Origin: a virus
DNA length: 64,000 bases
Reading direction: 5' to 3' (one strand)
Virus record (IMG/VR): IMGVR_UViG_3300025133_000028
In this document: in pieces, positions 21,329-44,931 of the stretch
How the letters are laid out: each line of letters opens with the position of its first letter
How positions within the stretch are numbered: the first letter of the stretch is position 1
Notes under the pieces: model-generated
Told to the model about the DNA's origin: nothing
Seen by the model: only the letters and a program-made list of their open reading frames with translations
Databases searched by the model: none
Translations under genes and position numbers: made by a program

Positions 21329-21401
21329 GGGCGCATAATCCAACAGTAGAGATAACACTCTTAAACAGTGTCCAGTCTCGGTGCAAATCCGAGTGCGCCT
21401 A
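21329..21401 (+). tRNA. tRNA-Leu(UAA), short variable loop, atypical T-loop
   Basis: Acceptor GGGCGCA/TGCGCCT; anticodon arm ACACT-CTTAAAC-AGTGT; T-arm CTCGG-TGCAAAT-CCGAG. Confidence 0.8.
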
Positions 21402-21464
21402 CTTGTATAATACAATGTTCTGTCCGAGGCACGAACGAATAACAAAAACAGCGGTTCAACTTCG

Positions 21465-21641
21465 TTATCTATTTTTATTATCAATTACCATTTGACATAA
21501 TTCAATAAATTTATCAACAGTTAAACTGTTTTTTGCTATATTAGCCTCTTTAATACAAATACCTAAATTATCAAGAGTGTTTTTACCTCCTTTTGATACT
21601 GGAATTATATGGTCAAAGTTGATGTTATAGGTTATGACGAA
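21465..21641 (-). pseudogene. C-terminal remnant of an HNH endonuclease
   Basis: Minus strand reads NINFDHIIPVSKGGKNTLDNLGICIKEANIAKNSL...*; preceded by an in-frame stop, no start. Confidence 0.75.
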
Positions 21642-21700
21642 TTAACCCTTGAACAAAAGGCTAGTATTCCACTGAGATACCGAAAGAAAGATTGGTAGTG

Positions 21701-22015
21701 ATGAAAATAGAAAACGTATCAATTATCCCAGATTTAGGAATACAGGTAGTAATTTCTTTGCGTGTTTACATGGGTGCTCAGAATTATAAAAAAGAACAGC
21801 CAGACGTTGACTCACCAAGATGGCGAAATATGGCTAAACGTATTTTAAGCGAAGTATGCGAAAACACAGAGTTGGATACAAAAGATTTTACATTCTCTGA
21901 AATAAATGTTGGTATGGAAGATGTACGTTTTTACGAAACACGGCAAGAATTTCAATTCTCATTTAAAAAGCAGTCTGCGGCACGCAGTGGGGAAAACAAA
22001 TGTCAGGAAAAATAG
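21701..22015 (+). CDS. hypothetical protein
   Basis: ~104 aa ORF. Confidence 0.5.
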   Translation: MKIENVSIIPDLGIQVVISLRVYMGAQNYKKEQPDVDSPRWRNMAKRILSEVCENTELDTKDFTFSEINVGMEDVRFYETRQEFQFSFKKQSAARSGENKCQEK

Positions 22016-22296
22016 TAACGGTAAAACTAACTAGTGGTGAAGAATTTTTTGGTAAATTACTTAATAGCGATGACGAAGGACTATTGATTGAAAAACCAGT
22101 TACAATGACACCTACTCAACAGGGTATGTCGTTGGTTCCTCCTGCTTTAACAGCAGAACACGCCGACGTGTTGTTTAAACATGTTCATATTTTGCTTTCT
22201 GGTGATACCAGAGAAGAATTGGCTGGTGCTTGGGAAGAAAACTTTGGTAATGGATTAACTGTTGCTAAGAAGCCTGGACTGATTGTGCCAGGGTAA
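22000..22296 (+). CDS. Sm/Hfq(LSM)-fold protein
   Basis: KIVTVKLTSGEEFFGKL...LLIEKP (Sm1-like), VLFKHVHIL (Sm2-like). Confidence 0.6.
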   Translation: MSGKIVTVKLTSGEEFFGKLLNSDDEGLLIEKPVTMTPTQQGMSLVPPALTAEHADVLFKHVHILLSGDTREELAGAWEENFGNGLTVAKKPGLIVPG

Positions 22297-22307
22297 CAGA
22301 ATTATAA

Positions 22308-22410
22308 TGTCGAGGGTGGGAGGTCAGTTGGACTGTGCATAATGTTCAGTCCTTAATCTCGACAAGGTTTATATCCTTGTAGAAGTCGGAGCATCCCCGG
22401 CACTCCTCTA
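22308..22410 (+). tRNA. degenerate tRNA-like element, UAU anticodon, long hairpin in place of the D-arm
   Basis: ACAAGG-TTTATAT-CCTTGT; T-arm GTCGG-AGCATCC-CCGGC; acceptor pairing imperfect. Confidence 0.4.
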
Positions 22411-22417
22411 CTTTTAT

Positions 22418-22489
22418 GGACTTATGGTGTAACCAGAAGCACAAAATCCTTTTAAGATTTGAGTCACGGGGCGGTTCCGTGTGGGTCCA
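22418..22489 (+). tRNA. tRNA-Lys(UUU), atypical T-loop
   Basis: GGACTTA/TGGGTCC; AAATC-CTTTTAA-GATTT; CACGG-GGCGGTT-CCGTG. Confidence 0.8.
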
Positions 22490-22610
22490 CTTTAACTTAG
22501 TTGTAAAAATCCATTGTCAAATTCTCAATGGTGATTTCGACATAAAGCAACGTTAAAAACCTTATCAAAGAAACCATAGTTGAATTTAATGTGTTAGGAA
22601 AAAAATTATA

Positions 22611-23825
22611 ATGAAAGTTGAAGATGGGCTTAAACTAGATTTTTCCGATGTTCTAATCAAACCCCGTAGAACATTGGCATATAGTAGAAATTCAGTCAAT
22701 CTTAACAGAGATTTTTCCTTCATGTATTCACCTAAAAAATGGGAAGGTATCCCAATTTTTGCAGCAAACATGGATACAACTGGCACCTTTGCTATGGCTA
22801 AAGCGTTACAACAATATAAACTTGTAACATGTCTACATAAACAATATAGCTATGAACTAGTTTGTGAGTTTTTTCTAAATAATCAGCTAGATTATGACTA
22901 TACTTGGGTAAGCACAGGAATTACCGACAAAGACCTAGAAAGACTAAAAAAAATACTACAACATTGTCCAAATGTTAATATTTGTGTTGATGTTGCTAAT
23001 GGTTACAATCAAGACTTTGTAGAAAAAATAGCTTATATTCGTTCGCTTTCTCCAGAAAGCATTATTATGGCAGGGAATGTTTGTACTGCTGAAATGGCAC
23101 AAGAATTAGTTATTGGTGGTAAAGCAGATATTGTTAAAGTTGGTATTGGTCCTGGTTCTGTATGTACCACCAGACTCGTTTCTGGTATTGGATATCCACA
23201 GTTGTCAGCAATTATGAATTGTGCAAACACCGTTCATGGTTTAAACAGTGGGCCTAAACGTATGGCTCTTATTTGTGCTGATGGAGGATGCGTTTATTCA
23301 GGCGATATAGCGAAGGCTTTTGGAGGAGATGCTGATTTTTGTATGTTGGGTGGGATGTTTTCTGGTTGCGAAGAAAACGAAGGAGAATGGGAATATCATA
23401 TTGATAGAGAAGACAAATATGAGCGGTATAATCTATATGAGCATTCTGATAATTTTATAACAGCATTAGTAAAAAGTGGAGGTATAGTAAAATTTCCAAA
23501 TAAACAACATATGGATAGCCCGCATGTTTTGGTTCCAAAATATTCTAAACAAAAGAAAAGCTTAAAATTCCATGGTATGTCATCTTCTAAAGCACAAGGT
23601 GCTAATTTAGCTAAACATCGTTCGTCGGAAGGAAAAGAGGTACATATTCCTTACAAGGGTATGGTTAGCGAAGTGTTAGATGGAGACAATGGTATTCTTG
23701 GCGGTTTACGTTCTGCTTGTAGTTATGTTGGCGTCAAAGAACTTAAAAACTTTGCAGATGCTGTTACATTTATTAGAGTAAATAATCAACATAATACGGT
23801 GTATGGAACAGGATTGGAAAAATAA
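22611..23825 (+). CDS. guaC: GMP reductase
   Basis: LDFSDVLIKP, ANMDTTG, DVANGY, KVGIGPGSVCTTR, GYPQLSA, DGG, GMSS, GGLRSACSYVG. Confidence 0.93.
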   Translation: MKVEDGLKLDFSDVLIKPRRTLAYSRNSVNLNRDFSFMYSPKKWEGIPIFAANMDTTGTFAMAKALQQYKLVTCLHKQYSYELVCEFFLNNQLDYDYTWVSTGITDKDLERLKKILQHCPNVNICVDVANGYNQDFVEKIAYIRSLSPESIIMAGNVCTAEMAQELVIGGKADIVKVGIGPGSVCTTRLVSGIGYPQLSAIMNCANTVHGLNSGPKRMALICADGGCVYSGDIAKAFGGDADFCMLGGMFSGCEENEGEWEYHIDREDKYERYNLYEHSDNFITALVKSGGIVKFPNKQHMDSPHVLVPKYSKQKKSLKFHGMSSSKAQGANLAKHRSSEGKEVHIPYKGMVSEVLDGDNGILGGLRSACSYVGVKELKNFADAVTFIRVNNQHNTVYGTGLEK

Positions 23826-23851
23826 CACTACGTGATTATAAGGAAAAAATA

Positions 23852-24157
23852 ATGAAAATAAAAAACTGGCAACTACTAAACAGCCTTAGAAGTAAAGAAT
23901 GTTTTCCTCAATGTAACGAATGGTCTTTGGCAGATTGGGGAAATGCTATGGCGGTCGAAACGGGCGAAGCCTGTAATATTATCAAAAAGATGTCGCGAGA
24001 CAGTGTTGATTTAAAAGAAGAACTAGGAAAAGAACTTGCTGATATTGTTGCTTACGTTGCTTTACTGGCTAATGCTGCCAACATAGATTTAGAGAAAGCT
24101 ATGATTGATAAGTTTGACGAAGTGTCTATTAAGTTAGGCTCAAATTATAGAGCATAA
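23852..24157 (+). CDS. MazG-like NTP pyrophosphohydrolase
   Basis: ETGEACNIIKK...ELADIVAY...IDL. Confidence 0.8.
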   Translation: MKIKNWQLLNSLRSKECFPQCNEWSLADWGNAMAVETGEACNIIKKMSRDSVDLKEELGKELADIVAYVALLANAANIDLEKAMIDKFDEVSIKLGSNYRA

Positions 24158-24168
24158 AGGGCGGAAAA

Positions 24169-24462
24169 ATGAAAAAAGTATCTTTTCTAAAAACCCCTCA
24201 CAAAAATTGGATTACTTCAACAAAAATTCCGCTATCTTGTTATTGGGTTGTAATTCCTCACGATGGAGACCAATTAGATGGTACTCCATACGAAATAGCT
24301 TATGTGTATTTTGATGGAAAATGGTCTGTAAGAAGAATTGGAATGTCTCAATATTTTTCAATTTATGATTTTACATTTGTCAAACCAATAGAAATATCAG
24401 AAAACGAATACAATATTATAATTAAAGATTGTCAAGAAAAATTTGGGAACGAATCATGGTAG
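24169..24462 (+). CDS. hypothetical protein
   Basis: 97 aa ORF. Confidence 0.5.
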   Translation: MKKVSFLKTPHKNWITSTKIPLSCYWVVIPHDGDQLDGTPYEIAYVYFDGKWSVRRIGMSQYFSIYDFTFVKPIEISENEYNIIIKDCQEKFGNESW

Positions 24463-24535
24463 AAGAAACATTACTAGAACTAACTAAGATAGAATTTGTA
24501 AATAGGTGTTGGAAAATTATAAAAGGAGAATATTA

Positions 24536-25597
24536 ATGAACAATCCCGTTAGGGTATTTGGACTTGGGAAAATGGGTATAGCTGTAGTCCATGCTTTGAA
24601 AAAACTTGGCTATACCAATATCCATACATACGATATAACCACACTGATTGATAAAGAAACAGACGATATAACACAACACACCTGTGATGGCGGATTTAAT
24701 TACTCAGAAGCTGTATCGAAAGACACCATAGGTGTTCTTTCGTGTATGCCTTACCATCAGAATTTACCTTTAGCTAAAGCGTGTATTGATAAAGGTGTAC
24801 CATACACTGATTTAGGCGGGCGAGTTGACGTATCTCAAGCTATTAATGATTATGCTAAAGAAAAAAATGCCACGGCAGTAACAGACCTTGGATTAGCACC
24901 AGGATTGGTCAATCTGGAAGTTATGCACGAAGTACTTCAGGCAAAAACATTTGGAATGACTCCTACAGTTGCCAACATGTCGTGTGGCGGAATACCAGAC
25001 ACTAATGTAGACAATATTCTAAATTATCAATGTACATGGTCTATGGACGGTTTAGTAAACGAATACGTAGATAACTGTCAAGCATTGATTGATGGGAACA
25101 TTCAAGAAGTTATGAGTTTAACCAATGACTTTAGATTAGATTTTGATAAAATTCATTTTGAATCTTCTAGAACAAGTGGTGGAGCAGCACATACTCTTGA
25201 ATGGATGCAAAAACAAGGTGTGTTAAACAGCGAGTATCAAACAATTAGAAACCCAGGTCATTTTAATGTTGTTAGAACTATTTTGGGTGACAATAAAGAT
25301 GCAGACCTTTTGGAATCTATATTTCAGAAATGTGGTTACACAAGTAAAGACATGGTGGTTTGGTCATCAAACGTCTTCACTAAAGAAGGGTATAAAAAAC
25401 TAACACTAAGTGGTATTCGTCATAACAGCGTTTTTACCGCTATGCAACAATGTACTGCTTTTCCTTTTGTTGCTGCTGCTGATGTCGTATTTAAATCTGG
25501 TAATAATAGTCGTGGATATGATGTTATTCTTGATAATTATGATAAATTTCAATCCAATCTTAATGATATTGGTTTTAAACCACAGGCAGTCAAATGA
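24536..25597 (+). CDS. saccharopine dehydrogenase/lysine 6-dehydrogenase-like oxidoreductase
   Basis: GLGKMG Rossmann motif, YTDLGG, DLGLAPG, CGGIP, WSMDGLVNEY, TIRNPGH. Confidence 0.85.
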   Translation: MNNPVRVFGLGKMGIAVVHALKKLGYTNIHTYDITTLIDKETDDITQHTCDGGFNYSEAVSKDTIGVLSCMPYHQNLPLAKACIDKGVPYTDLGGRVDVSQAINDYAKEKNATAVTDLGLAPGLVNLEVMHEVLQAKTFGMTPTVANMSCGGIPDTNVDNILNYQCTWSMDGLVNEYVDNCQALIDGNIQEVMSLTNDFRLDFDKIHFESSRTSGGAAHTLEWMQKQGVLNSEYQTIRNPGHFNVVRTILGDNKDADLLESIFQKCGYTSKDMVVWSSNVFTKEGYKKLTLSGIRHNSVFTAMQQCTAFPFVAAADVVFKSGNNSRGYDVILDNYDKFQSNLNDIGFKPQAVK

Positions 25598-26571
25598 AAA
25601 ACATATCTTTAGATTTAGTCAGAGTTACGGAAGCTGGGGCAATTCACGCATCAAAATGGGTTGGTTCTGGAAATAAAGAACTAGCAGATAAAGATGCCTC
25701 ACAAGCTATGCGTGATAGATTTAATCAAATGGATTTTTGTGGTTTAATTAAAATTGGCGAAGGTAAGAAAGATAAGTCGTTTGGTCTCTATGAAGGAGAA
25801 ATAGTAGGGAAAGCAAGTTATACTGCGGATTTTATGACAGAAGCAACAAGAAAGCTTTACCGCCACTTACAAGGACATACGGTGTGTGATATTGCTATTG
25901 ACCCTATTGAGGGGACTACTCCTACTGTGTACGGTGGACCAGAAGCTATGTCTGTGGTTGCAATAGCTAATAAAGACTCTATGTATACTACGGAAAACTA
26001 TTATATGGACAAACTAGTTTGGGGTCCAACAACAAACAAGTTTAAAATTAAGCCATCTTTGCGGTATTCTATTAAGAAAAATATACAAATTCTCTCGGAA
26101 GCACTTGACAAGCCTTACGATAGGGTTATTATATGTGTGCTAGACCGTGTGCGTAACTTAGACAGGATTGAAAAACTGCGGAAATTAGGCGTTAGACTCA
26201 AGCTTATTAAAGACTGTGATGTTTCTGGTGGTATTGCTGCGTGTTTGAATAGGTCTGGTGTAGATTGTTATATGGGTATTGGTGGTTCTCCAGAGGGTGT
26301 AATTACGGCTGCTGCTGTTAAGGGTCTTGGTGGAGGCATGGAAATCCGCGACGTAACCAAAGATGGCGAACGTTGGTTTACAAAGACTGGTAGTATCGTA
26401 GCATTAAACAAGCTGATTGATGGAGGATGTGCTTTTTCTGCAACTGGAATTACTACAGGTAGTATTTTGGATGGAGTGAAGATTATTAACGGCAAATATG
26501 TTACCCATAGTATGTTTATGAGAAGTGAAAGTAAAACTGTACGTTGGTTAAGGACTGAACATGGAAACTAA
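25594..26571 (+). CDS. glpX: class II fructose-1,6-bisphosphatase
   Basis: RVTEAGA, IGEG, DIAIDPIEGT, YMDK, GIGGSPEGVITAAA, ATGIT. Confidence 0.92.
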   Translation: MKNISLDLVRVTEAGAIHASKWVGSGNKELADKDASQAMRDRFNQMDFCGLIKIGEGKKDKSFGLYEGEIVGKASYTADFMTEATRKLYRHLQGHTVCDIAIDPIEGTTPTVYGGPEAMSVVAIANKDSMYTTENYYMDKLVWGPTTNKFKIKPSLRYSIKKNIQILSEALDKPYDRVIICVLDRVRNLDRIEKLRKLGVRLKLIKDCDVSGGIAACLNRSGVDCYMGIGGSPEGVITAAAVKGLGGGMEIRDVTKDGERWFTKTGSIVALNKLIDGGCAFSATGITTGSILDGVKIINGKYVTHSMFMRSESKTVRWLRTEHGN

Positions 26572-26914
26572 AGATGAATTTATTATGCCTAAAAGGCAGG
26601 AAGTACAAATAACAGAAGATAACACGCACAAAAAAGGTACTCGTTCTAATATAAGAGTTTGGACAGAAGATGGTGGTGATGTTTATGAATTAGATGGTTC
26701 TTTGTGTACGGAATTACATGAAGACAAACAGATAATGATTTATGGTTTGTTGGGTGAAAAACGAATTATGACAGTCACACCAGAACATGACGCGGAAGAT
26801 AGTGGGATGTATGCGGTAATTCAACACTGGGAAAATTTGAATACTACAAGGAAAAATTACATTTGTACATATTTTATTGACAAAAGTATTTCTTTGAGGG
26901 CTGATTTTTCATAA
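26561..26914 (+). CDS. hypothetical protein
   Basis: 117 aa ORF. Confidence 0.5.
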   Translation: METKDEFIMPKRQEVQITEDNTHKKGTRSNIRVWTEDGGDVYELDGSLCTELHEDKQIMIYGLLGEKRIMTVTPEHDAEDSGMYAVIQHWENLNTTRKNYICTYFIDKSISLRADFS

Positions 26915-26992
26915 TTTTGTGTATAATAAAGAGGAACTATGAATACAAACAATAAATAATCAGCAGGGTATACCCCTGCTAGGGGGTGTGTC

Positions 26993-27325
26993 ATGAGTGA
27001 ATATTTAGGTGATGTAACTGCAAAAATAGTTGTTCAAGCAGAAGGCAAAAACTACAAAATAGACCCAGTGACGGTATTATTGGTCGCCAGAGTAGTAGTT
27101 AACTTAGTAAAAGCTTTAAAAGCTTGCAATAAACACACAGGCTCAGCGGTCAAAACGACCAAAAATATAACTCGCAGAGAACGTAACATTATAAAACGCG
27201 AGTTAAAAAAAGAGTTTGGTTTTTGGGGTTATTGGAAAAACGGCAGAAAATACGTAGATTCCATCGTAAAAACCTCTTCAGAATGTAATGAAGAAGACAT
27301 TGTAAAACTATATTCAGAGATTTAA
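26993..27325 (+). CDS. hypothetical protein (similar layout to 17815-18147)
   Basis: IDPVTVLLV...LKAC hydrophobic helix, then a basic region. Confidence 0.6.
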   Translation: MSEYLGDVTAKIVVQAEGKNYKIDPVTVLLVARVVVNLVKALKACNKHTGSAVKTTKNITRRERNIIKRELKKEFGFWGYWKNGRKYVDSIVKTSSECNEEDIVKLYSEI

Positions 27326-27337
27326 AAGGAGAATTGT

Positions 27338-28291
27338 ATGAGATTCAGGGTGGGATTTGTAGCAGTATTAGCACTAATGTTGACGACTTCTGTAGGTTTT
27401 GGTAATGATGTTATTAAACACTTACAAGATGTTAGCGTTACAATCAAGTCAGAAGGAGCGTTTGGTGGCGGGCAAGGGTCTGGAGTTATTGTAACTCGCG
27501 ATGTTGAAGTGAGCAAAGGAAAGACAGTAAAAGTCAACTTTGTGTGGACAGCAGCCCATGTTATTGATAATCTACGCACTGTTCGCAAAGTAGTAGACCC
27601 ACAAACCGGAGTAACAAAAAGCGTTATTGATTTCAAACCCGCACATATTGTCAAAGAATTAGTAGAAAATGGCAGACGAGTCGGTGAAGTCAAAATGGAA
27701 GCAGTTGTTATCAAGTATTCCCATTCGGAAGAAGGCGAAGACTTGGCTTTGCTTATGGTGAGAAAACGAGATTTTGTACAAGCAAATTCCAATTTTTTCC
27801 TTGATACAGAAGAAGACTCTGAAAATCTACAAGCTATTGATTTGGGTACGGAATTGTATCATGTTGGTTCGCTATTAGGGCAGTTTGGTAGTAATTCATT
27901 GACTACTGGTGTTATTTCACAGGTTGGACGAGTACTTGACCTATCGAGTGGTGAAGGTACTGTATTTGACCAAACAACGGTAACAGCTTTTCCTGGTAGT
28001 TCTGGTGGTGGTGTTTTCTTGAAAGACGGACGATATATTGGTATGTTGGTTCGTGGTGCTGGCGAGACGTTCAATCTTATTGTTCCAGTACGTAGAATGC
28101 ATACGTGGGCAAAAGAAAATAAAGTAGAATGGGCTATGAACAAATCAGTAAAAATACCTACGCTAAAAGAGTTGCGTAAAATTACTGTTGATGACAGTGT
28201 GTCTCAAGACACAGACAAAACAGAACGTTCAGAAGACTCAAAACAATATGACTTCTTGTTTAAATACACTCCGGTAGAAACGAAAGAATAG
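27338..28291 (+). CDS. trypsin-like serine protease with signal peptide
   Basis: GSG, TAAHV, DLALL, PGSSGGG. Confidence 0.9.
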   Translation: MRFRVGFVAVLALMLTTSVGFGNDVIKHLQDVSVTIKSEGAFGGGQGSGVIVTRDVEVSKGKTVKVNFVWTAAHVIDNLRTVRKVVDPQTGVTKSVIDFKPAHIVKELVENGRRVGEVKMEAVVIKYSHSEEGEDLALLMVRKRDFVQANSNFFLDTEEDSENLQAIDLGTELYHVGSLLGQFGSNSLTTGVISQVGRVLDLSSGEGTVFDQTTVTAFPGSSGGGVFLKDGRYIGMLVRGAGETFNLIVPVRRMHTWAKENKVEWAMNKSVKIPTLKELRKITVDDSVSQDTDKTERSEDSKQYDFLFKYTPVETKE

Positions 28292-28303
28292 GAGGTACTA
28301 ACA

Positions 28304-28741
28304 ATGGAGTCTGGCGACATCTTACTTAGTAGATGGATTGATGACTCTAATAATAGTACTCCTGGCTATTGGAATCATACGGCTCTATATGTTGGTAACG
28401 GCCAACTTATAGAGTCCGTTTTTGGTAAAGGAGTAATTATTAGCGAGTTTGAGGAATGGAAACACAACGTTGGTAGATATTGTGTACTTCGACCAGAAAA
28501 CTCACACAAAATCAACAAAAATAAAACAATTTCCTTTGCAAAATCAAAAATAGGAGTAAAATATAGTATGTTTTCTTCTATCAGTCGTATTTGGAGAATG
28601 TTTGGGGTTAATTGCGTAAGTCTAGTCAGACAATCATACAACAGAGGAGGCTTAAAAGTTAAGTGGAAATATCCTGATTGTATACATGATGATACTAGAC
28701 TTAAAATTGTAGAAATAACAACACTATCATTGGAAGAATAA
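28304..28741 (+). CDS. YiiX/YebB-like permuted papain amidase
   Basis: GDILL, GYWNHTALY, GVKY, NCVSLV. Confidence 0.75.
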   Translation: MESGDILLSRWIDDSNNSTPGYWNHTALYVGNGQLIESVFGKGVIISEFEEWKHNVGRYCVLRPENSHKINKNKTISFAKSKIGVKYSMFSSISRIWRMFGVNCVSLVRQSYNRGGLKVKWKYPDCIHDDTRLKIVEITTLSLEE

Positions 28742-28781
28742 GCCGAAAGACCCAGTGTAACGGCACCTGTCTTGAAAACAG
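28732..28781 (+). pseudogene. 5' half of a tRNA-Ser(UGA)
   Basis: GGAAGAA-TA-AGCCG...CGGC-A-CCTGT-CTTGAAA-ACAG; no T-arm or 3' acceptor strand follows. Confidence 0.5.
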
Positions 28782-28783
28782 AC

Positions 28784-28936
28784 TTAGCTCTTAAAAGACT
28801 AGAAATAGAAGTAGAAAGACTACAAAAATGGGACGGTTCGTATCCAACGACATTGTTTGGTGGCGACAATCTCATGGGTCAAAATCTACTGTTGAATGTT
28901 CCAGTGGAAAAAGGAAACGACAAACGAATTGGTTAA
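28784..28936 (+). pseudogene. C-terminal fragment resembling an SPFH/prohibitin (Band 7) protein
   Basis: LALKRLEIEVERLQKWDGSYPTTLFGG...*, the KWDG.P motif typical of phage SPFH C-termini. Confidence 0.5.
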
Positions 28937-28944
28937 ACTCTATT

Positions 28945-29172
28945 TTACAAGCGTTTAGACTTGAAAATAAAATACGTTCTGTTGAAAGAGACCGAAAAGC
29001 AGCAGAAAAGAAAGCAAAAAGAGACGATGCTATTCACAATACTCCTGTTATTAGAACGTATGACTATAAAAAAGGAACAGTAAAAGACCACCGTACAGGA
29101 AAAATAGCAAGTTTAAAACAAGTTGTGCAAAAAGGTAGAATAGACCTTTTAAAAGACAAGGAAATCAAATGA
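28945..29172 (+). pseudogene. C-terminal part of a class I peptide release factor-like protein (no GGQ)
   Basis: IRTYDYKKGTVKDHRTG...L..V..GRIDLL matches the RF1 tail RTYN...RVTDHR...L..V.EG.LD. The 28828 ORF N-terminus is unrelated. Confidence 0.55.
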
Positions 29173-37868: not shown

Positions 37869-38167
37869 TGACAATGGATATCGAAGTAAAAGGTTCTCAT
37901 ACAGAAGAAAAACGAGTTAAAGCAAAGGATTGTTTTGGTGCTGATTACGGTGTTGTGTTTCAACAATATTTTCATGGTAAACCACAAAAAACGTACTTGA
38001 TTGGAACAGGACATGCAGACAGACCTATTAGTGTCTGGTGGGACGAAGAAGAAAAAGAATACAAAATCTCTTCAGAATCTAAAAAAGAACTAAAAGAATA
38101 TCTGCCCTGGGTCCAATTCAAAAAACTTCCTAATGCTCGTGTCAGACTGGAGTTAGACTGTGGATAG
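37868..38167 (+). CDS. hypothetical protein
   Basis: SD GGGAG, ATG 37868. Confidence 0.5.
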   Translation: MTMDIEVKGSHTEEKRVKAKDCFGADYGVVFQQYFHGKPQKTYLIGTGHADRPISVWWDEEEKEYKISSESKKELKEYLPWVQFKKLPNARVRLELDCG

Positions 38168-38567
38168 ATTAAAATTTCGTGTTTGGTCTAAAAGTCAGGA
38201 AAGATTTTTAAATCATACAGAACAAGACCCGATGATTGATTGTCAGGGAGATGTTTCTGTTTATGATAGAGAAACTAAAGAATGGCATTGTGTGGTACAT
38301 AATCCAGATTTTGTAGTACAACAATGTACTGGTGTTAAAGATATTAACGGAGAATTAATTTATGAGGGAGATATTTGCAAAGCCAAAAAACCAAACTCTT
38401 ATCTTAATAATGAAGATTGTGAAATTAGATGGGACGAGAGAGGAAGATGGGTTTACTTTTTACCTAGAATAAATAGATATGCTACAGCCGGAAACAAAAC
38501 ACCATATCAAATTGGATGTCAAGGAAATTCTAGATGTGAAATCATAGGAAATATTTTTATCAAATGA
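38160..38567 (+). CDS. YopX family protein
   Basis: LKFRVW...QCTGVKDINGELIYEGDI...EIIGNI. Confidence 0.9.
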   Translation: MDRLKFRVWSKSQERFLNHTEQDPMIDCQGDVSVYDRETKEWHCVVHNPDFVVQQCTGVKDINGELIYEGDICKAKKPNSYLNNEDCEIRWDERGRWVYFLPRINRYATAGNKTPYQIGCQGNSRCEIIGNIFIK

Positions 38568-39133
38568 CTTTAATTAATAAAATACAAAAAGAAAGACCAG
38601 ATTGGACATCACAGTTCATTCTTCATGCTTTTCACTGTTCTTTACGTAGTCATGATGCTCAAACTCAATGTGGTGCTGTACTGGTTGCTTCAGACAATAC
38701 TATTATTAGCGATGGTTATAACGGTTTTATTCGTGGGATTGACGACAACAAACTACCTAACCTACGACCAACCAAACCAAAAGATTACGGTAACCCAACT
38801 CAAGATAAATACATCTTTATGATTCATAGTGAACACAACGCTATACTTAACGCAGCCAGACAAGGTAAAAGTACTTTAGGAGCAACAGTTTACGTAACGG
38901 GTGAGCCTTGTTGTAATTGTTTGCAGTATATGATACAAGCTGGTATCACAAAAATCGTTTTTACTAATGTTAATAAAGCTAATATGACGGTTGTAAATCC
39001 AGACTACAAAAAGACTTTTGACTTAATAGTAGAACTTACTGGTATAGACATAGAAGAAATAGACATAGATAAAATTAACCCACAGTTCTTGTTAGAAAAA
39101 CTTTCCAAAATTTTTGTTGACAAACCAACGTAA
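38564..39133 (+). CDS. dCMP deaminase
   Basis: GAVLV, GYNG, HSEHNA, PCCNC, IQAGI. Confidence 0.92.
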   Translation: MTLINKIQKERPDWTSQFILHAFHCSLRSHDAQTQCGAVLVASDNTIISDGYNGFIRGIDDNKLPNLRPTKPKDYGNPTQDKYIFMIHSEHNAILNAARQGKSTLGATVYVTGEPCCNCLQYMIQAGITKIVFTNVNKANMTVVNPDYKKTFDLIVELTGIDIEEIDIDKINPQFLLEKLSKIFVDKPT

Positions 39134-39413: not shown

Positions 39414-42400
39414 ATGCACACTTATGAAGAGGCGTATGAGACAAGTAAAGAATATTTTGGTGGTAATGAGTTAGCAGCTAAGGTTTTTGTAGATAAATAT
39501 TCGTTAAAAAATGAGATAGGTGAAATTCTTGAAAAAACACCTACAAGTATGCATAAAAGATTGGCTAAAGAATTTGCTCGAATAGAAAAAAAGAAATTCA
39601 AAACACCATTAACCAAAGAAGAAATATTTGACTTGTTTGATAATTTTAAATATATTGTTCCTCAAGGTAGTCCAATGAGTGGGATTGGCAATAACTATAA
39701 CTATCAATCATTAGGTAATTGTTTTACTTTAGGCAATCATCCTGTAGATTCATATGGCGGTATTTTATATGCTGACCAAATGTTAGTACAGTTAAGTAAA
39801 AGGCGATGCGGTGTTGGTGCTCATATAAACAATATTAGACCAAAAGGTTTGCCAACAAAAAATGCAGCTATTACTACAGATGGTATTTCTGTATTTATGG
39901 AGCGATTCTCTAACAGTATTCGCGAAGTCGCACAATCAGGCAGAAGAGGAGCACTTCTTTTAGGATTGTCTGCATACCATCCAGAGATAGAAACTTTTAT
40001 CAATATCAAAAAAGATAAGACAAAAGTTACAGGTGCTAATCTATCTGTGCTATTACCTAATAATTTTATACAAGCGGTGGAACAAGACGAAGAATACGAA
40101 CAAAAATGGCCAATTGATTCTGAGACTCCGTTAGTTTCTCAAATGGTTAACGCTAAAAAAATATGGAATCAAATCATTAATGCTGCTTGGGAATCTGCCG
40201 AACCAGGACTATTGTTTATTGACAACATACAAAAATATAGCACTTCACACTGTTATGGTAAGGTAGATGAAAGGTTTTTAGACCTAATCCCAAATCCGTG
40301 TTTTCCAGCAAGCGAATATTTACTAACAAATAAAGGATATGTATCTTTTGGACAATTGTTTAAACAAGGTAATAATAATAAGATATTAGCAGACGCTCGT
40401 ATATCTTATAATAATGTTGGAGAAGAACGTGTTGAAAATTGGAAAATAAACTCCCAAAAACACGGAACAATTCAAAGAAATGCTAGTCATGTATTTTTAA
40501 CACAAAAAAAAGCTGACACAATAGAAATAGAAACCAAAAAAGGATTTAAACTGTCGTGTACGCCAGACCATCATATTGCAACAACTACAGGTATGATTGA
40601 AGCAAGTCAATTAATTAAAAATGATGATATACTAATATCGATTCCTAATCAAAATACAAAATCAATTAAAAACAGATTACCAAAAACAGAAAAAGAAATA
40701 TTGTCATTTCTAATAGGTTTGATTTCTGGAGACGGATGTATTGATAATAGTAAAAAAAATATACATCTTGATTTTTGGGAAGATGATAGATATCGTATGA
40801 CAGACATAGTTGTAAAGCTTATTAAAAAACTTCACAATAAATTAGGAGACAGATATGGATTGTCTAACAGAAAATTAAAAATATCTAGAATTTATGATGT
40901 ACAAAAAGAAAGAAAAATAAGAATTTCATCTTCTTGGTTGTTTAATGTACTTTCAGAATATGGTTTTAATAAACAAACAAAACATATGGTTCCTGATTTT
41001 ATATTAAATAATTGTGTAGGTAATATAGGCAAATATTATTTGTCTGGTATGATGTATACAGATGGAACTATTGGAGGAAGTGTAAGTTCTGGATATTCGG
41101 TAAGATTAAATCAAAGTAATAAAAAAATGCTACATAAAATACAAATGATTTTTCATGCTAATGGTATTTTAATGGGTTTATACAAAAGAAGAGACGAACA
41201 AAACCGTATGATGCCGGACGGCAAAGGCGGATATAAATCATATAAAACAAAAACAAATTATGAATTAATTAGTATATGTGGTAGTATAGTTAAATATATG
41301 TCAGAAATAGGGTTTTTTGGAGACAAAAACAAAGAGTCTAAATTTAATAAAAATCATAATTATAGAATCAAATTAAATTACACAGATAAAATTAAAAAAA
41401 TAACATTTAAAAATCAAGAACCAGTATTTTGCATTAAAGAAGATATTGGAAGGAATATTATTGTTAATGGTATTTCTGCAAGAAGATGCGGCGAAGTACC
41501 AATGGGATTTGATGCATGTAGGCTAATGTTATTAAATCTGTTTTCTTATGTAGATAAACCTTTTACTAAATCCGCTAAGTTTGATTACAAAAAATTTGAT
41601 GAACATTGTATTACAGCACAAAGACTAATGGATGACATGGTAGATTTAGAATTAGAAAAAATGGATAAGATAATCAAAAAGATTAAATCTGACCCAGAAC
41701 CTGATAATATTAAACAATTAGAACTTGAAATGTGGGAGTCATATAAAGAAACTGCCGAACTAGGACGTAGAACTGGACTTGGTATTACTGGACTTGGCGA
41801 TTGTTTAGCTGCTTTAGGAATTCAATACGGTTCTAAAAAATCTATTAGAAAAACAGAAGAAATATACAAGAGAATGGCTATATCTTCTATGAAATCGTCA
41901 TGTCTACTAGCTAAAGAACTTGGTGCTTTTCCTTTGTTTAATCCCACCGTTGAACAAGATAACATTTTCATGAATCGTATTTTTGATGCGTCTGAAGAAG
42001 TTAAAATTTTACACCAACAGTATGGCAGACGTAATATTTCCTTGACAACCACCGCTCCTGCCGGTAGTGTTAGTATTATGACCCAAACGACTTCTGGTAT
42101 TGAACCTGCTTTTATGTTAGAATATACCCGAAGAAGAAAAATAAATAACGATTCTGAAAAATGTGATTTCGTGGATGCTTCTGGCGATAAGTGGGAACAT
42201 AACAAAGTAGTCCATCATCACTTGCAGACATGGCGGGATTTAAGTCAAAAAGACAATATTGAGGATTCTCCGTATCATAAGGCTACTTCAAACGACATTG
42301 ACTGGAAAGCTAGTGTAGAATTACAGTCTGTTGCTCAAAAGTGGATTACTCACTCTATTAGTAAAACATGTAATATTCCTAGCGATTCCACAAAAGAACT

Positions 42401-43010
42401 AGTTGCGGAAATTTACTTGGCTGCTGCTAAAAGTGGATGTAAAGGCTTTACTGTATATCGCGATGGTTGTAGAGACGGTGTTTTAGTTGCTGACACAGAA
42501 GTAAAGTTACCACCCAATAGGCCAAAAGAACTAGATTGTGATGTTTACCACACTACAGTTCGCGGACAAGAATATTTTGTGTTAGTTGGATTGTACAAAA
42601 ACAAACCATACGAAGTATTCGCTGGTAAGAATGGTATTATTCACAAAAAAGTTAAGACTGGCAAAATTACTAGGAAACGTAAAGATTTTTACAAAGCGGT
42701 GTTTGATGACGAAAATGAACTATCTCCAATTACGGCATGTATGGAAGAAATGGAAGAATGTATTTCCAGACTTACGTCTAGTCTTTTACGTAGTGGTTCA
42801 GATATGAACTTTATTGTAACACAACTAGAAAAGGTTGGTGAAAGACAAACAGAAATGCATACTTTTGCTAAGTGTCTTGCTCGCGTACTCAAAAAGTATA
42901 TTCCAGACGGGACAGAAACTGGAGATAAATGCCCAGAATGTGGTGATAAACTTATTAGGGAAAGTGGTTGCCAATCGTGTAAATCATGCCCTTATGCTAA
43001 ATGTGGTTAA
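39414..43010 (+). CDS. nrdJ: class II (adenosylcobalamin-dependent) ribonucleotide reductase with intein
   Basis: PQGS, GNC, GRRGA, GANLSV, AEPG, NP|CGE, RRTGLG, APAG, TSGIEP, ISKT, KGFTVYRDG; C-terminal TSCPD-like domain and Zn ribbon. Confidence 0.9.
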   Translation: MHTYEEAYETSKEYFGGNELAAKVFVDKYSLKNEIGEILEKTPTSMHKRLAKEFARIEKKKFKTPLTKEEIFDLFDNFKYIVPQGSPMSGIGNNYNYQSLGNCFTLGNHPVDSYGGILYADQMLVQLSKRRCGVGAHINNIRPKGLPTKNAAITTDGISVFMERFSNSIREVAQSGRRGALLLGLSAYHPEIETFINIKKDKTKVTGANLSVLLPNNFIQAVEQDEEYEQKWPIDSETPLVSQMVNAKKIWNQIINAAWESAEPGLLFIDNIQKYSTSHCYGKVDERFLDLIPNPCFPASEYLLTNKGYVSFGQLFKQGNNNKILADARISYNNVGEERVENWKINSQKHGTIQRNASHVFLTQKKADTIEIETKKGFKLSCTPDHHIATTTGMIEASQLIKNDDILISIPNQNTKSIKNRLPKTEKEILSFLIGLISGDGCIDNSKKNIHLDFWEDDRYRMTDIVVKLIKKLHNKLGDRYGLSNRKLKISRIYDVQKERKIRISSSWLFNVLSEYGFNKQTKHMVPDFILNNCVGNIGKYYLSGMMYTDGTIGGSVSSGYSVRLNQSNKKMLHKIQMIFHANGILMGLYKRRDEQNRMMPDGKGGYKSYKTKTNYELISICGSIVKYMSEIGFFGDKNKESKFNKNHNYRIKLNYTDKIKKITFKNQEPVFCIKEDIGRNIIVNGISARRCGEVPMGFDACRLMLLNLFSYVDKPFTKSAKFDYKKFDEHCITAQRLMDDMVDLELEKMDKIIKKIKSDPEPDNIKQLELEMWESYKETAELGRRTGLGITGLGDCLAALGIQYGSKKSIRKTEEIYKRMAISSMKSSCLLAKELGAFPLFNPTVEQDNIFMNRIFDASEEVKILHQQYGRRNISLTTTAPAGSVSIMTQTTSGIEPAFMLEYTRRRKINNDSEKCDFVDASGDKWEHNKVVHHHLQTWRDLSQKDNIEDSPYHKATSNDIDWKASVELQSVAQKWITHSISKTCNIPSDSTKELVAEIYLAAAKSGCKGFTVYRDGCRDGVLVADTEVKLPPNRPKELDCDVYHTTVRGQEYFVLVGLYKNKPYEVFAGKNGIIHKKVKTGKITRKRKDFYKAVFDDENELSPITACMEEMEECISRLTSSLLRSGSDMNFIVTQLEKVGERQTEMHTFAKCLARVLKKYIPDGTETGDKCPECGDKLIRESGCQSCKSCPYAKCG
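40299..41486 (+). mobile_element. intein (396 aa) with LAGLIDADG homing endonuclease in the RNR active-site NPC motif; ends in Arg
   Basis: Block A CFPASEYLLT, block B CTPDH, LAGLIDADG-like LIGLISGDG and YLSGMMYTDG, block F/G VFCI...IVNGISARR|C. Lower GC than the exteins. Confidence 0.9.
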
Positions 43011-43021
43011 AGGAAAATATT

Positions 43022-43579
43022 ATGGATATTGCTTGTAGCGAAACTTACAACTTCGATGATGTGTATTTAGCTCCACCAATAGATTTAACTAGACAACATC
43101 ATATACACAGCATAGAAGTTAGTAAGGATTTAGGAAGAGAAGAAATCAACGAACTAGGTAGAAGAGGACCATATTTTAAATATGTAAATTTTCCAATTGG
43201 AATTACAAAGGAGTTAGGACTTGTGGCAATAGTACCAGACGTATCGAAATTTGGCGGATTTGATTTATACCAACATTTAGCTTCTGAAACTGCAATTTAT
43301 CCAGAAGAACAACGCATTACTTACCCCGCTTTGGGATTGTGTGGTGAATCTGGAGAAGTTGCTGAGAAAGTTAAAAAACTATTTCGGGATGATAATGGCG
43401 AATTATCAGAAGAAAGACGAGAAGCACTTAAAAAAGAAATTGGTGATTGTTTCTGGTATTTAGCTGCTCTTGCTAAGGATTTAGACATTAGTTTGGCTGA
43501 TGCTGCTCATGCCAATCTGGTTAAACTATTTGACCGCAGAGACAGAGGAGTACTCAAAGGCGACGGCGATAATCGTTAA
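43022..43579 (+). CDS. MazG-like NTP pyrophosphohydrolase (probable own start at GTG 43223, in-frame upstream extension)
   Basis: ALGLCGESGEVAEKVKK...EIGDCFWY...N..KL..R..RG...GDGDNR; internal SD AAGGAG before the GTG. Confidence 0.85.
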   Translation: MDIACSETYNFDDVYLAPPIDLTRQHHIHSIEVSKDLGREEINELGRRGPYFKYVNFPIGITKELGLVAIVPDVSKFGGFDLYQHLASETAIYPEEQRITYPALGLCGESGEVAEKVKKLFRDDNGELSEERREALKKEIGDCFWYLAALAKDLDISLADAAHANLVKLFDRRDRGVLKGDGDNR

Positions 43580-43595
43580 AATTTGATTTTTTTGT

Positions 43596-43623
43596 TTGAC
43601 AAAAGCCAGTAAAGAGGTATATT
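43596..43623 (+). promoter_or_regulatory. sigma70-like promoter
   Basis: TTGACA-16nt-TATATT. Confidence 0.6.
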
Positions 43624-43682
43624 TTCCTAGAAGACGTTGTTTTCCCGCTTGGGAAATTGTATTAAAACAAGAAAGTATTATC

Positions 43683-44258
43683 ATGAAAAATCATTCAGTA
43701 CTAGTATTAAACTCGAATTGGCAACCTTTTGATATCTGGGGATGGCAAAGAGCTATGGTCAAATTACTTAAGGGGAATGTGTACATGGCGGAAAAATATG
43801 ATTGGACCATTAGGGATGGTAAAGGTCAAGAATACGATGTTCCTTGTGTGTTGGTTTTAAAGAAGTATATTAATGCTCATAATAAACCAGCACCTTACGG
43901 CAAAAGAAACATTGCTGCTCGTGATGGATATACGTGTCAATACTGCGGAGAAATGTTTCCTAGTAGAGAATTAACTATCGACCACGTTATTCCTAGGTCT
44001 AAGTGGAAAAAGCTTGGAAGTGGAGGAAGTCCAAATAAGATGACTAATGCTGTTGCTAGTTGTGAAACCTGCAATAGAAAAAAGGGAGATAGGACTCCGA
44101 AAGAAGCAAATATGATGCTTTTAAGTGAGCCTAAGAATATACTTCAGAGTAAAGCTTTTGTTTTAAAGTTCATTCATACTAAGATTCCACAAGAATGGCT
44201 AGACTACATTACAATTGAAGGTAAAAAACATATAGATGGCAAGAAAAAGAAAGCGTAA
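43683..44258 (+). CDS. HNH endonuclease (McrA-like)
   Basis: VLVLN, RDGYTCQYCG, TIDHVIPRS, N...CETCNRKKG. Confidence 0.9.
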   Translation: MKNHSVLVLNSNWQPFDIWGWQRAMVKLLKGNVYMAEKYDWTIRDGKGQEYDVPCVLVLKKYINAHNKPAPYGKRNIAARDGYTCQYCGEMFPSRELTIDHVIPRSKWKKLGSGGSPNKMTNAVASCETCNRKKGDRTPKEANMMLLSEPKNILQSKAFVLKFIHTKIPQEWLDYITIEGKKHIDGKKKKA

Positions 44259-44931
44259 GAATCAAGTTACACAACAAAGAAAAGACCAAGATTTTAAAGC
44301 AAAAACAAGTGGTCAAACAGAATACGTTAGAGCTATCGCAGAAAACAGATTGGTAATATGCACTGGTCCTCCAGGCACAGGTAAAACTAGCTGTGCTATT
44401 GGAGTCGCTTGCGAAAGATTAAAAGCCAATCAAATTAAGCGTATCGTTATTTCTAGACCAACTGTTGAAACTTCTAAAAGGGGTTTGGGTTTTATACCTG
44501 GAAAACTAGAAGAAAAATTCAGTGCTTATACTAGACCAGTAATAGCCGAACTTAAGAAGTATCTAGGTATAACCAAATACAATTCTCATTGTTATGCTGG
44601 TTCTATTATTTTTGAGCCACTAGAATATATGAGAGGAATGAACTATCATGACTCTTTTGTTATTCTGGACGAAGGTCAAAACGCGGAATATGAACAGCTT
44701 AAAATGTTCGTGACTCGTATGGGTCAAAACTCAACCTTTGTTATAAACGGAGACCTTAAACAAAACGACTTATGGGATAGAAACGACAAGCTATTCCACG
44801 ACGAAATTGGTCTTTATGATGTGATTACTAAATTGGAAAACATTAATGGCGTATCTCATGTTAAGTTACAAAACTCTGATATTGTCAGAGACCCATTTAT
44901 TGGGGTTTTAGCTCAAGCGTTAGATGAATAA
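44236..44931 (+). CDS. phoH: PhoH family ATPase
   Basis: GPPGTGKT, SRP, LGFIPG, YMRG, LDEGQN, TRMG, NGDLKQ, DIVR. Confidence 0.93.
   Translation: MARKRKRKNQVTQQRKDQDFKAKTSGQTEYVRAIAENRLVICTGPPGTGKTSCAIGVACERLKANQIKRIVISRPTVETSKRGLGFIPGKLEEKFSAYTRPVIAELKKYLGITKYNSHCYAGSIIFEPLEYMRGMNYHDSFVILDEGQNAEYEQLKMFVTRMGQNSTFVINGDLKQNDLWDRNDKLFHDEIGLYDVITKLENINGVSHVKLQNSDIVRDPFIGVLAQALDE

Follow-up and report, generated by a model that had tools for sequence, protein, structure and literature searches.

The window analysed here, a 64,000-nucleotide stretch of the viral record IMGVR_UViG_3300025133_000028 (IMG/VR), harbours a gene for the large subunit of ribonucleotide reductase (RNR) that is split by an intein of 396 residues ending in Arg-Arg, not His-Asn. 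Protein splicing is taught as requiring a terminal Asn, rarely Gln, Asp or Glu. The Arg-Arg ending of the window intein was confirmed, and terminal Arg recurs in a lineage of inteins at the same insertion site (named ‘R-type' here), in which the terminal residue (G:7) is strictly paired with a basic residue at position F:13. Based on the selection and mobility of this lineage, R-type inteins probably splice, via an Arg-dependent third step that is as yet undescribed.

The intein and its motifs are located in the window as follows.

40299..41486, + strand: intein, 396 aa, with a HINT splicing domain and a LAGLIDADG homing endonuclease (Pfam, AlphaFold2 model, Foldseek)
40299..40301, + strand: Cys1 (TGT), the block A nucleophile, invariant in 180/180 relatives
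40440..40442, + strand: Trp48, specific to the Arg-ending type (99% versus 4%)
40560..40571, + strand: block B T88-P-D90-H91, with Thr at B:7 and His at B:10; T and H are conserved at 95% or more in both types
40707..40736, + strand: LAGLIDADG motif 1, FLIGLISGDG, with catalytic Asp145
41031..41069, + strand: LAGLIDADG motif 2, KYYLSGMMYTDGT, with catalytic Asp255
41430..41432, + strand: block F:4 Cys378 (TGC) in the context V-F-C378, where Asp is usual
41451..41453, + strand: block F:13 Arg385 (AGG), where His is usual (register with canonical relatives)
41481..41486, + strand: G:6 Arg395 and G:7 Arg396 (AGA AGA), the last two intein residues, where His and Asn are usual
41487..41489, + strand: the +1 Cys (TGC), the thiyl-radical Cys of NPCGE

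The junctions read IPNP↓CFPASEYLLT at the N-terminal side and PVFCIKEDIGRNIIVNGISARR↓CGEVPMG at the C-terminal side (arrows mark the splice sites). Canonical relatives that share the insertion site (such as VYDLTEPxTHSFIANGLVVHN↓CGE) set the block register, and arginine thus occupies all three of F:13 (usually His), G:6 (usually His) and G:7 (usually Asn). A shifted register (NPC↓F...RRC↓GE) was ruled out, as homologous Asn- and Gln-ending inteins at the same site fix the junction as [N/Q/R]↓C. An earlier note on this DNA had placed the intein at 40299-41489: the start stands, yet the end takes in the +1 Cys codon, and the intein stops at 41486. The Cys1, block B TxxH, two intact LAGLIDADG motifs and block F VFC that it described are all present, and AGA AGA as the last codons before TGC was confirmed at 41481-41486; the Arg at F:13 (R385) is an additional deviation that it lacked.

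The AlphaFold2 model of the intein, built from a 7-sequence alignment, reached a mean predicted local distance difference test score of 90.4 and a predicted template modelling score of 0.91. Its top Foldseek matches were TliVMA, PI-PfuI (itself an RNR intein) and PI-SceI, all being endonuclease-bearing inteins, and its middle domain matched I-DmoI. The insert is therefore, as modelled, a complete intein with a HINT fold. A LAGLIDADG homing endonuclease is present as judged from Pfam (PF14528), the two motifs with their acidic residues and the predicted fold, and its activity is a prediction; D145/G146 and D255/G256 are kept at 91% or more in both types.

The exact protein was recorded on 7 contigs from four sources (JGI, Logan, ENA and MetaClust). 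Over distinct contexts, the terminal Arg is encoded by AGA (10), CGA (2) and AGG (1), and the penultimate Arg by CGA (7), CGT (2), AGG (2) and AGA (1). AGA is also the main Arg codon of the RNR open reading frame (ORF; 28 of 53), where it encodes universally conserved RNR arginines (for example, in SGRRGAL and GRRTGLG), and no tRNA-Arg or odd tRNA was found among the five tRNAs of the window. The chance that the ending stems from a sequencing or assembly error, or from AGA being read as another amino acid, is thus close to nil: only the oddity of the ending itself speaks for it, while the 7 contigs, the three Arg codons used family-wide (AGA, AGG and CGA), the conserved AGA-encoded arginines and the tRNA content of the window all speak against it. 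On the codon and tRNA evidence, recoding of AGA was ruled out. The earlier judgement that a read error was unlikely is borne out by the 7 contigs together with a terminal Arg in 98 diverged relatives.

To collect these relatives, several searches were combined. A word-seeded search with the intein region returned 81 RNR proteins, about 76 of which (29-57% identity) end in [R/K]R↓C with a block F [Y/F]C; HN↓C or SN↓C endings with a block F Asp were found only in the remotest of the 81. A DNA pattern that leaves the last five intein codons free (IIVNGxxxxxCGE) matched mostly RR↓C inteins among viral and metagenome contigs, the other endings being QQ, HQ, VQ, AQ, HN, GN and AR. Patterns derived from the single intein were too specific and matched nothing in viral contigs, and the exact junction pattern with free Arg-Arg codons matched nothing in metagenome contigs, a set that may lack near-identical records. 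A seven-intein profile, searched against 1.84 billion representatives, gave 5471 matches at E < 1e-3 and 448 at E < 1e-30. When all proteins gathered in the searches were re-scored, 180 full-length inteins were identified at the NP↓C site.

All 180 start with Cys1 and are followed by Cys+1. They end in Arg in 98 cases, in Asn in 44 and in Gln in 38, and Arg-enders reach down to ~29% identity, which answers the question of recurrence that the earlier note had put to the homologues. The Arg-ending dipeptides are RR (92), AR (2), KR, VR, SR and QR (1 each); the Gln-ending ones are GQ (27), RQ (4), SQ (3), LQ (2) and AQ (2); and the Asn-ending ones are GN (25), HN (11), SN (3), RN, KN, TN, FN and AN (1 each). 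Thus the basic residue at G:7 is always Arg and never Lys, while G:6 varies (R, K, A, V, S or Q); a strict G:7 beside a tolerant G:6 fits a direct chemical role for G:7. Position F:13 is Arg or Lys in 98/98 Arg-enders, and Arg in 1/82 Asn/Gln-enders. Nine positions (L9, F17, W48, D90, A94, M99, R385, R395 and R396) form an R-type signature, in that each is kept in at least 90% of Arg-enders and at most 25% of the others; among them, Asp90 (B:9) is found in 92% versus 17%. The block F Cys, which the earlier note had treated as peculiar to this allele, is shared more widely: Cys F:4 is found in 98/98 Arg-enders and also in 42/82 Asn/Gln-enders, and it was rejected as a trait that discriminates Arg-enders.

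A number of individual sequences met in these searches deserve record. The NP↓CGE intein at L003:4622-5773 (- strand; IMGVR_UViG_3300031873_000356, same as L022) ends in Gln-Gln (CAA CAG), with block F VYC, Asn at F:13 and 25% identity to the window intein. The R-type intein of P0074, at 365 aa, is shorter by ~30 residues and gave no Pfam match to LAGLIDADG_3, yet it retains Cys F:4, Arg F:13 and Arg-Arg, possibly a case of endonuclease decay in which the residues for splicing are kept. Proteins of 1600-1660 aa (P0004, P0007, P0022, P0028, P0071 and others) carry an R-type intein plus at least one further intein of other families (Pfam Hom_end, Hint and PF13403). Eight marine contigs that matched the DNA pattern (L019, L027, L031, L032, L035, L038, L042 and L067) are non-intein; a conserved motif unrelated to the inteins, GPWLxGR[SA]A[SDE]-IIVNG..VGECGE-[ILV]DP, recurs in them.

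A FastTree tree of the inteins was built without their last 20 residues, so that the columns of the trait itself do not shape the topology. The window intein falls in a clade of 55 Arg-enders (starred), and the Arg label changes 5 times over the whole tree, compared with a mean of 59 when labels are shuffled; R-type inteins are thus, on this tree, nearly one group, with Gln-ending relatives as neighbours. A few non-Arg inteins are nested among the Arg-enders, namely P0089/P0096 (ending RN and KN), P0095 (TN) and P0122 (RQ), and P0092 (RQ) sits at their base. As the tree is unrooted and many of its branches are weak, gain of Arg and reversion of the nested Asn/Gln-enders are indistinguishable. 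Three of these inteins retain the full R-type background (L9, F17, W48, D90, A94, M99, C378 and R395): P0089, with His at F:13 and an Arg-Asn end; P0092, with Asn at F:13 and an Arg-Gln end; and P0122, with His at F:13 and an Arg-Gln end. In 4/4 phylogenetically independent contrasts, F:13 changes together with G:7 while F:4 stays Cys. The position that switches with the terminal residue is therefore, by this comparison of sequences, F:13 and not F:4. Four points are new here: F:13 and G:7 are strictly paired, both have switched together in natural inteins nested within the R-type, the R-type has signature positions, and Cys F:4 belongs to a shared background.

The gene that carries the intein is organized as follows.

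39414..43010, + strand: precursor ORF, 1198 aa, RNR large subunit (class II, NrdJ-like, with C-terminal TSCPD; Pfam and alignment to 1xjk)
39414..40298, + strand: N-extein, aa 1-295, ending in DLIPNP (alignment to 1xjk up to NPC)
41487..43010, + strand: C-extein, from CGEVPMGFDAC to the stop, with the second redox Cys and the TSCPD domain (Pfam, 1xjk alignment)

The Pfam domains of the precursor are the RNR barrel, the RNR all-alpha N-domain, LAGLIDADG_3, Intein_splicing (PF14890) and the C-terminal TSCPD, and among solved proteins the exteins best match NrdJ from Thermotoga maritima, a B12-dependent enzyme (1xjk/1xje, E = 1e-43). That alignment runs continuously up to NPC and restarts past the insert, and thus bears out the earlier claim that the insertion splits NP↓CGE exactly, at the thiyl-radical Cys. 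Both redox cysteines (C103 and the Cys of FDAC) are retained. Judged from the barrel, the NPCGE thiyl Cys, the redox Cys pair and the similarity to solved NrdJ, the host enzyme is a class II (adenosylcobalamin) RNR, NrdJ. The phage record is 163,651 bp long, with a CheckV completeness of 100%, and the intein-split gene is the only RNR large-subunit gene found in the whole of it by a Pfam RNR-barrel search.

Catalytic residues of the host exteins are kept in the 1xjk alignment, and the ratio of nonsynonymous to synonymous substitution rates (dN/dS, or omega; Nei-Gojobori) of the exteins ranged from 0.07 to 0.25 across pairs. For L053 versus L056/L014, which are unsaturated, omega is 0.24 in the intein and 0.20 in the C-extein. 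On these substitution patterns, exteins and inteins are both under purifying selection. Moreover, between L075 and L002 the inteins are 89% identical (dS 0.205) while the exteins are only 76-77% identical (dS ~1.5); inteins so much more alike than their host genes point to a recent transfer of the intein between diverged RNR genes. The closest extein relatives of the window gene (up to 63% identity) are intein-free proteins of ~800 aa: of the nearest 118, NPC[GA]E is uninterrupted in 67, which also lack an intein-profile match, a few have canonical inteins there that end in HN↓C or SN↓C, and only three (P0285, P0047 and P0059) have R-type inteins. The R-type lineage is thus, as read from these comparisons, mobile between diverged RNR genes. 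It spans marine, digester and gut samples, and in the species genomes of GTDB it was found on only three contigs of metagenome-assembled genomes (an uncultured bacterium, a Ca. Muiribacterium and a Saccharibacteria).

These patterns bear on the possibility that the intein is splicing-dead, or cleaves without ligation, with the RNR being dead, dispensable or made of two non-covalent pieces. No known chemistry employs a terminal Arg, the phage RNR is an accessory gene, and a fragmented phage RNR that assembles from pieces has a precedent in Aeh1 NrdA, which reportedly does so. Yet across the 98 diverged alleles the ORFs and catalytic residues are intact and dN/dS is low for intein and exteins alike, strict constraint also acts on the terminal Arg and on F:13, and even a two-piece enzyme would still require cleavage after Arg. 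From established knowledge of RNR structure, furthermore, the insert lies at the buried tip of the finger loop, where an unspliced enzyme should be inactive. A dead or merely cleaving intein is therefore improbable. Of the two alternatives offered by the earlier note, this was one; the other, a non-canonical resolution of the branched intermediate, is supported indirectly.

A 45-kDa insert at the buried tip of the finger loop is expected to inactivate the enzyme. With the RNR exteins under selection, such an insert would thus have to be removed. We consider it fairly probable that the R-type intein splices via an undescribed Arg-dependent step 3, a reading in which both the splicing and its chemistry are inferred. 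Since Cys1, Thr B:7, His B:10 and Cys+1 are in place, the front half of the chemistry looks canonical, and steps 1 and 2 (the N-S acyl shift at Cys1 and the transfer to Cys+1) would probably proceed as usual. Step 3, the cleavage of the Arg396-Cys+1 bond, would depend on the terminal Arg working with the cationic residue at F:13; indeed, G:7 never being Lys, G:6 being tolerant and F:13 switching with G:7 in an unchanged scaffold together suggest that G:7 and F:13 act as a pair.

In the route proposed for this step, N-epsilon of the Arg396 guanidino group would attack the residue's own backbone carbonyl and close a six-membered delta-lactam, a ring of the same size as the glutarimide from Gln-ending inteins. 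With Arg385 (F:13) and Arg395 (G:6) as cationic neighbours, the guanidinium may have a lowered pKa, Asp90 (B:9) is a candidate base to accept the proton, and an N-S shift at Cys+1 could first convert the scissile amide to an activated Arg thioester. Step 3 by Arg cyclisation to a delta-lactam is a tentative proposal, to which we give somewhat less than an even chance. The step from Gln (CAA) to Arg (CGA) is a single transition, CGA is used at both G:6 and G:7, and 38 of the 180 relatives end in Gln. Parts of the route have published precedents. His F:13 activates Asn G:7 and stabilises the tetrahedral intermediate, cyclisation of Gln, Asp or Glu is accepted as an alternative to that of Asn, and splicing of the RNR intein of Chilo iridescent virus (CIV) works better with the Gln that it naturally has (PMC4031507). 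Where the carboxyl of Arg is activated, the inner nitrogen of the guanidine attacks it and a six-membered delta-lactam forms (PMC3597280, PMC7352207).

Several points weigh against splicing by Arg-dependent chemistry. The splicing product, the excised intein and the intermediate are unobserved for any member of the lineage, and function is read from selection and mobility. As a nucleophile, guanidinium is very poor at physiological pH, and no natural case is known to us in which Arg cyclises to cleave a peptide bond. The delta-lactam precedents involve activated esters, not amides (PMC3597280, PMC7352207). The dN/dS pairs are mostly saturated (dS > 1), only L053/L056 and L075/L002 being informative, and the four contrasts of F:13 and G:7 are four only (sign test, p = 0.125), drawn from a FastTree topology with many weak branches. 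The phage RNR being accessory, short-lived dead alleles can exist. Finally, Cys F:4, invariant in R-type inteins, could be the real nucleophile.

This last point constitutes the main rival to Arg cyclisation. Here the Cys378 thiolate would perform step 3 by attacking the Arg396 carbonyl in the manner of a cis-acting cysteine protease, or would take over the Arg396 thioester made by an N-S shift at Cys+1; by either route the alpha-amine of Cys+1 would be freed and a C-terminal thiolactone left, to hydrolyse later. Cys F:4 is found in 98/98 R-type inteins, class 3 inteins use an F:4 Cys as a proven nucleophile, the F:4 side chain touches G:7 in Pho RadA (PMC4031507), and the cluster of three surrounding arginines would stabilise the thiolate and lower the pKa of Cys378. 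However, the same Cys is present in 42/82 Asn/Gln-enders, which still have a cyclising residue, and it is unchanged in all 4 contrasts between R and N/Q; nor does it account for why G:7 is Arg and never Lys. Catalysis by Cys F:4 is therefore rather unlikely.

The dibasic Arg-Arg before the cut site also looks like a protease site, and a host or phage protease cutting after Arg might resolve the branched intermediate, or expose Cys+1 for a ligation-like reaction, with the intein carrying out the N-terminal chemistry only. Such help, raised by the earlier note, fails to explain why the internal F:13 switches with G:7. In addition, G:6 may be A, V, S or Q while G:7 is never Lys, and the lineage occurs across widely differing hosts and environments (marine, digester and gut; Saccharibacteria and Muiribacterium metagenome-assembled genomes), so that a shared partner is unlikely. 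An outside protease is accordingly highly improbable.

Relative to the established intein classes, the window intein has Cys at 1 and +1 and the block B Thr B:7 (T88) and His B:10 (H91) of class 1. Its G:7, in contrast, is Arg396 and not a cyclising Asn, Gln, Asp or Glu, and the assisting His that is common but not obligatory in class 1 is absent (R395 at G:6, R385 at F:13). By these residues it resembles class 1 with a non-Asn terminus but lacks the G:7 feature that defines the class. Class 2 (Ala1, with direct +1 attack on the N-terminal junction) was ruled out, position 1 being Cys. Class 3 (no nucleophile at position 1, and the WCT set of Trp B:12, Cys F:4 and Thr G:5) was ruled out as well, Cys1 being invariant and B:12 being Ile93; G:5 is Ala in the window intein and Ala, Thr, Val or Met in relatives. 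Class 3 inteins such as that of mycobacteriophage Bethlehem DnaB share Cys F:4, and Thr G:5 with many members of the R-type family, but they lack Cys1, have Trp B:12 and end in Asn, whereas the window intein has Cys1, Ile B:12 and an Arg end. R-type inteins could tentatively be regarded as a fourth mechanistic kind, in which the branched intermediate would be resolved by formation of a C-terminal Arg delta-lactam with a cationic F:13 partner activating; we would sooner doubt this assignment than rely on it.

The nearest known systems are class 1 inteins with a native Gln terminus, from Chilo iridescent virus RNR and from Pol II of Pyrococcus abyssi and Methanoculleus marisnigri (PMC4031507). 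They share with the window intein Cys1, the block B Thr/His, the +1 nucleophile and the HINT fold, as well as a non-Asn terminal residue whose side-chain nitrogen could close a six-membered ring; they differ in that the window intein has Arg at the terminus, F:13 and G:6, and in that its splicing is a prediction. In GenBank phages, the closest inteins (26-28% identity) are those of Bacillus phage SPbeta bnrdE and Staphylococcus SPbeta-like nrdE2. These also contain LAGLIDADG and reside in a phage RNR at the homologous site (SNL↓C[ST]E, at the thiyl Cys of class Ib NrdE), but are canonical, with block F VYD, His at F:13 and a Gly-Asn↓Cys ending. The only solved structure found by sequence is the NrdJ-1 split intein (PDB 8ubs), an RNR (NrdJ) intein with weak similarity in block B (E = 0.004), which we take to be a split mini-intein with canonical blocks F and G. 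A search of the full-text literature, with most subscription journals outside its reach, found no description of an intein ending in Arg.

A large, selected and mobile Arg-ending lineage implies that either self-cleavage proceeds by a new chemistry or the block F Cys is put to a new use. If Arg cyclisation is true, it would be the first case in nature of an arginine side chain acting as the nucleophile that cleaves a peptide bond, and the F:13/G:7 pairs Arg/Arg, His/Asn and Asn/Gln would serve a single scaffold as catalytic cassettes that can be exchanged. Relatives with the same scaffold but His/Asn or Asn/Gln at these positions are near-isogenic natural controls. A new C-terminal cleavage chemistry would also extend the intein toolbox, through other pH or redox control and a C-terminal lactam or thioester handle. 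Annotation rules that demand Asn will miss or mislabel Arg-ending inteins in phage RNR genes.

The genes around the RNR gene make up a nucleotide-metabolism module.

38160-38567: YopX
38564-39133: dCMP deaminase
43001-43579: MazG
43596-44258, + strand: free-standing HNH endonuclease
44236-44931: PhoH

The HNH endonuclease gene, located between MazG and PhoH and two genes downstream of RNR, is the second gene of mobile-element type in the module. By megablast, the RNR gene had no match in GenBank phages. The five tRNA genes of the window (Leu-TAA, Met-CAT, Gly-TCC, Thr-TGT and Thr-GGT) lie at 21329-36568, upstream of the module. An antisense ORF of 127 aa at 41822-42205 (- strand), inside the C-extein region, was listed by the ORF tool only.

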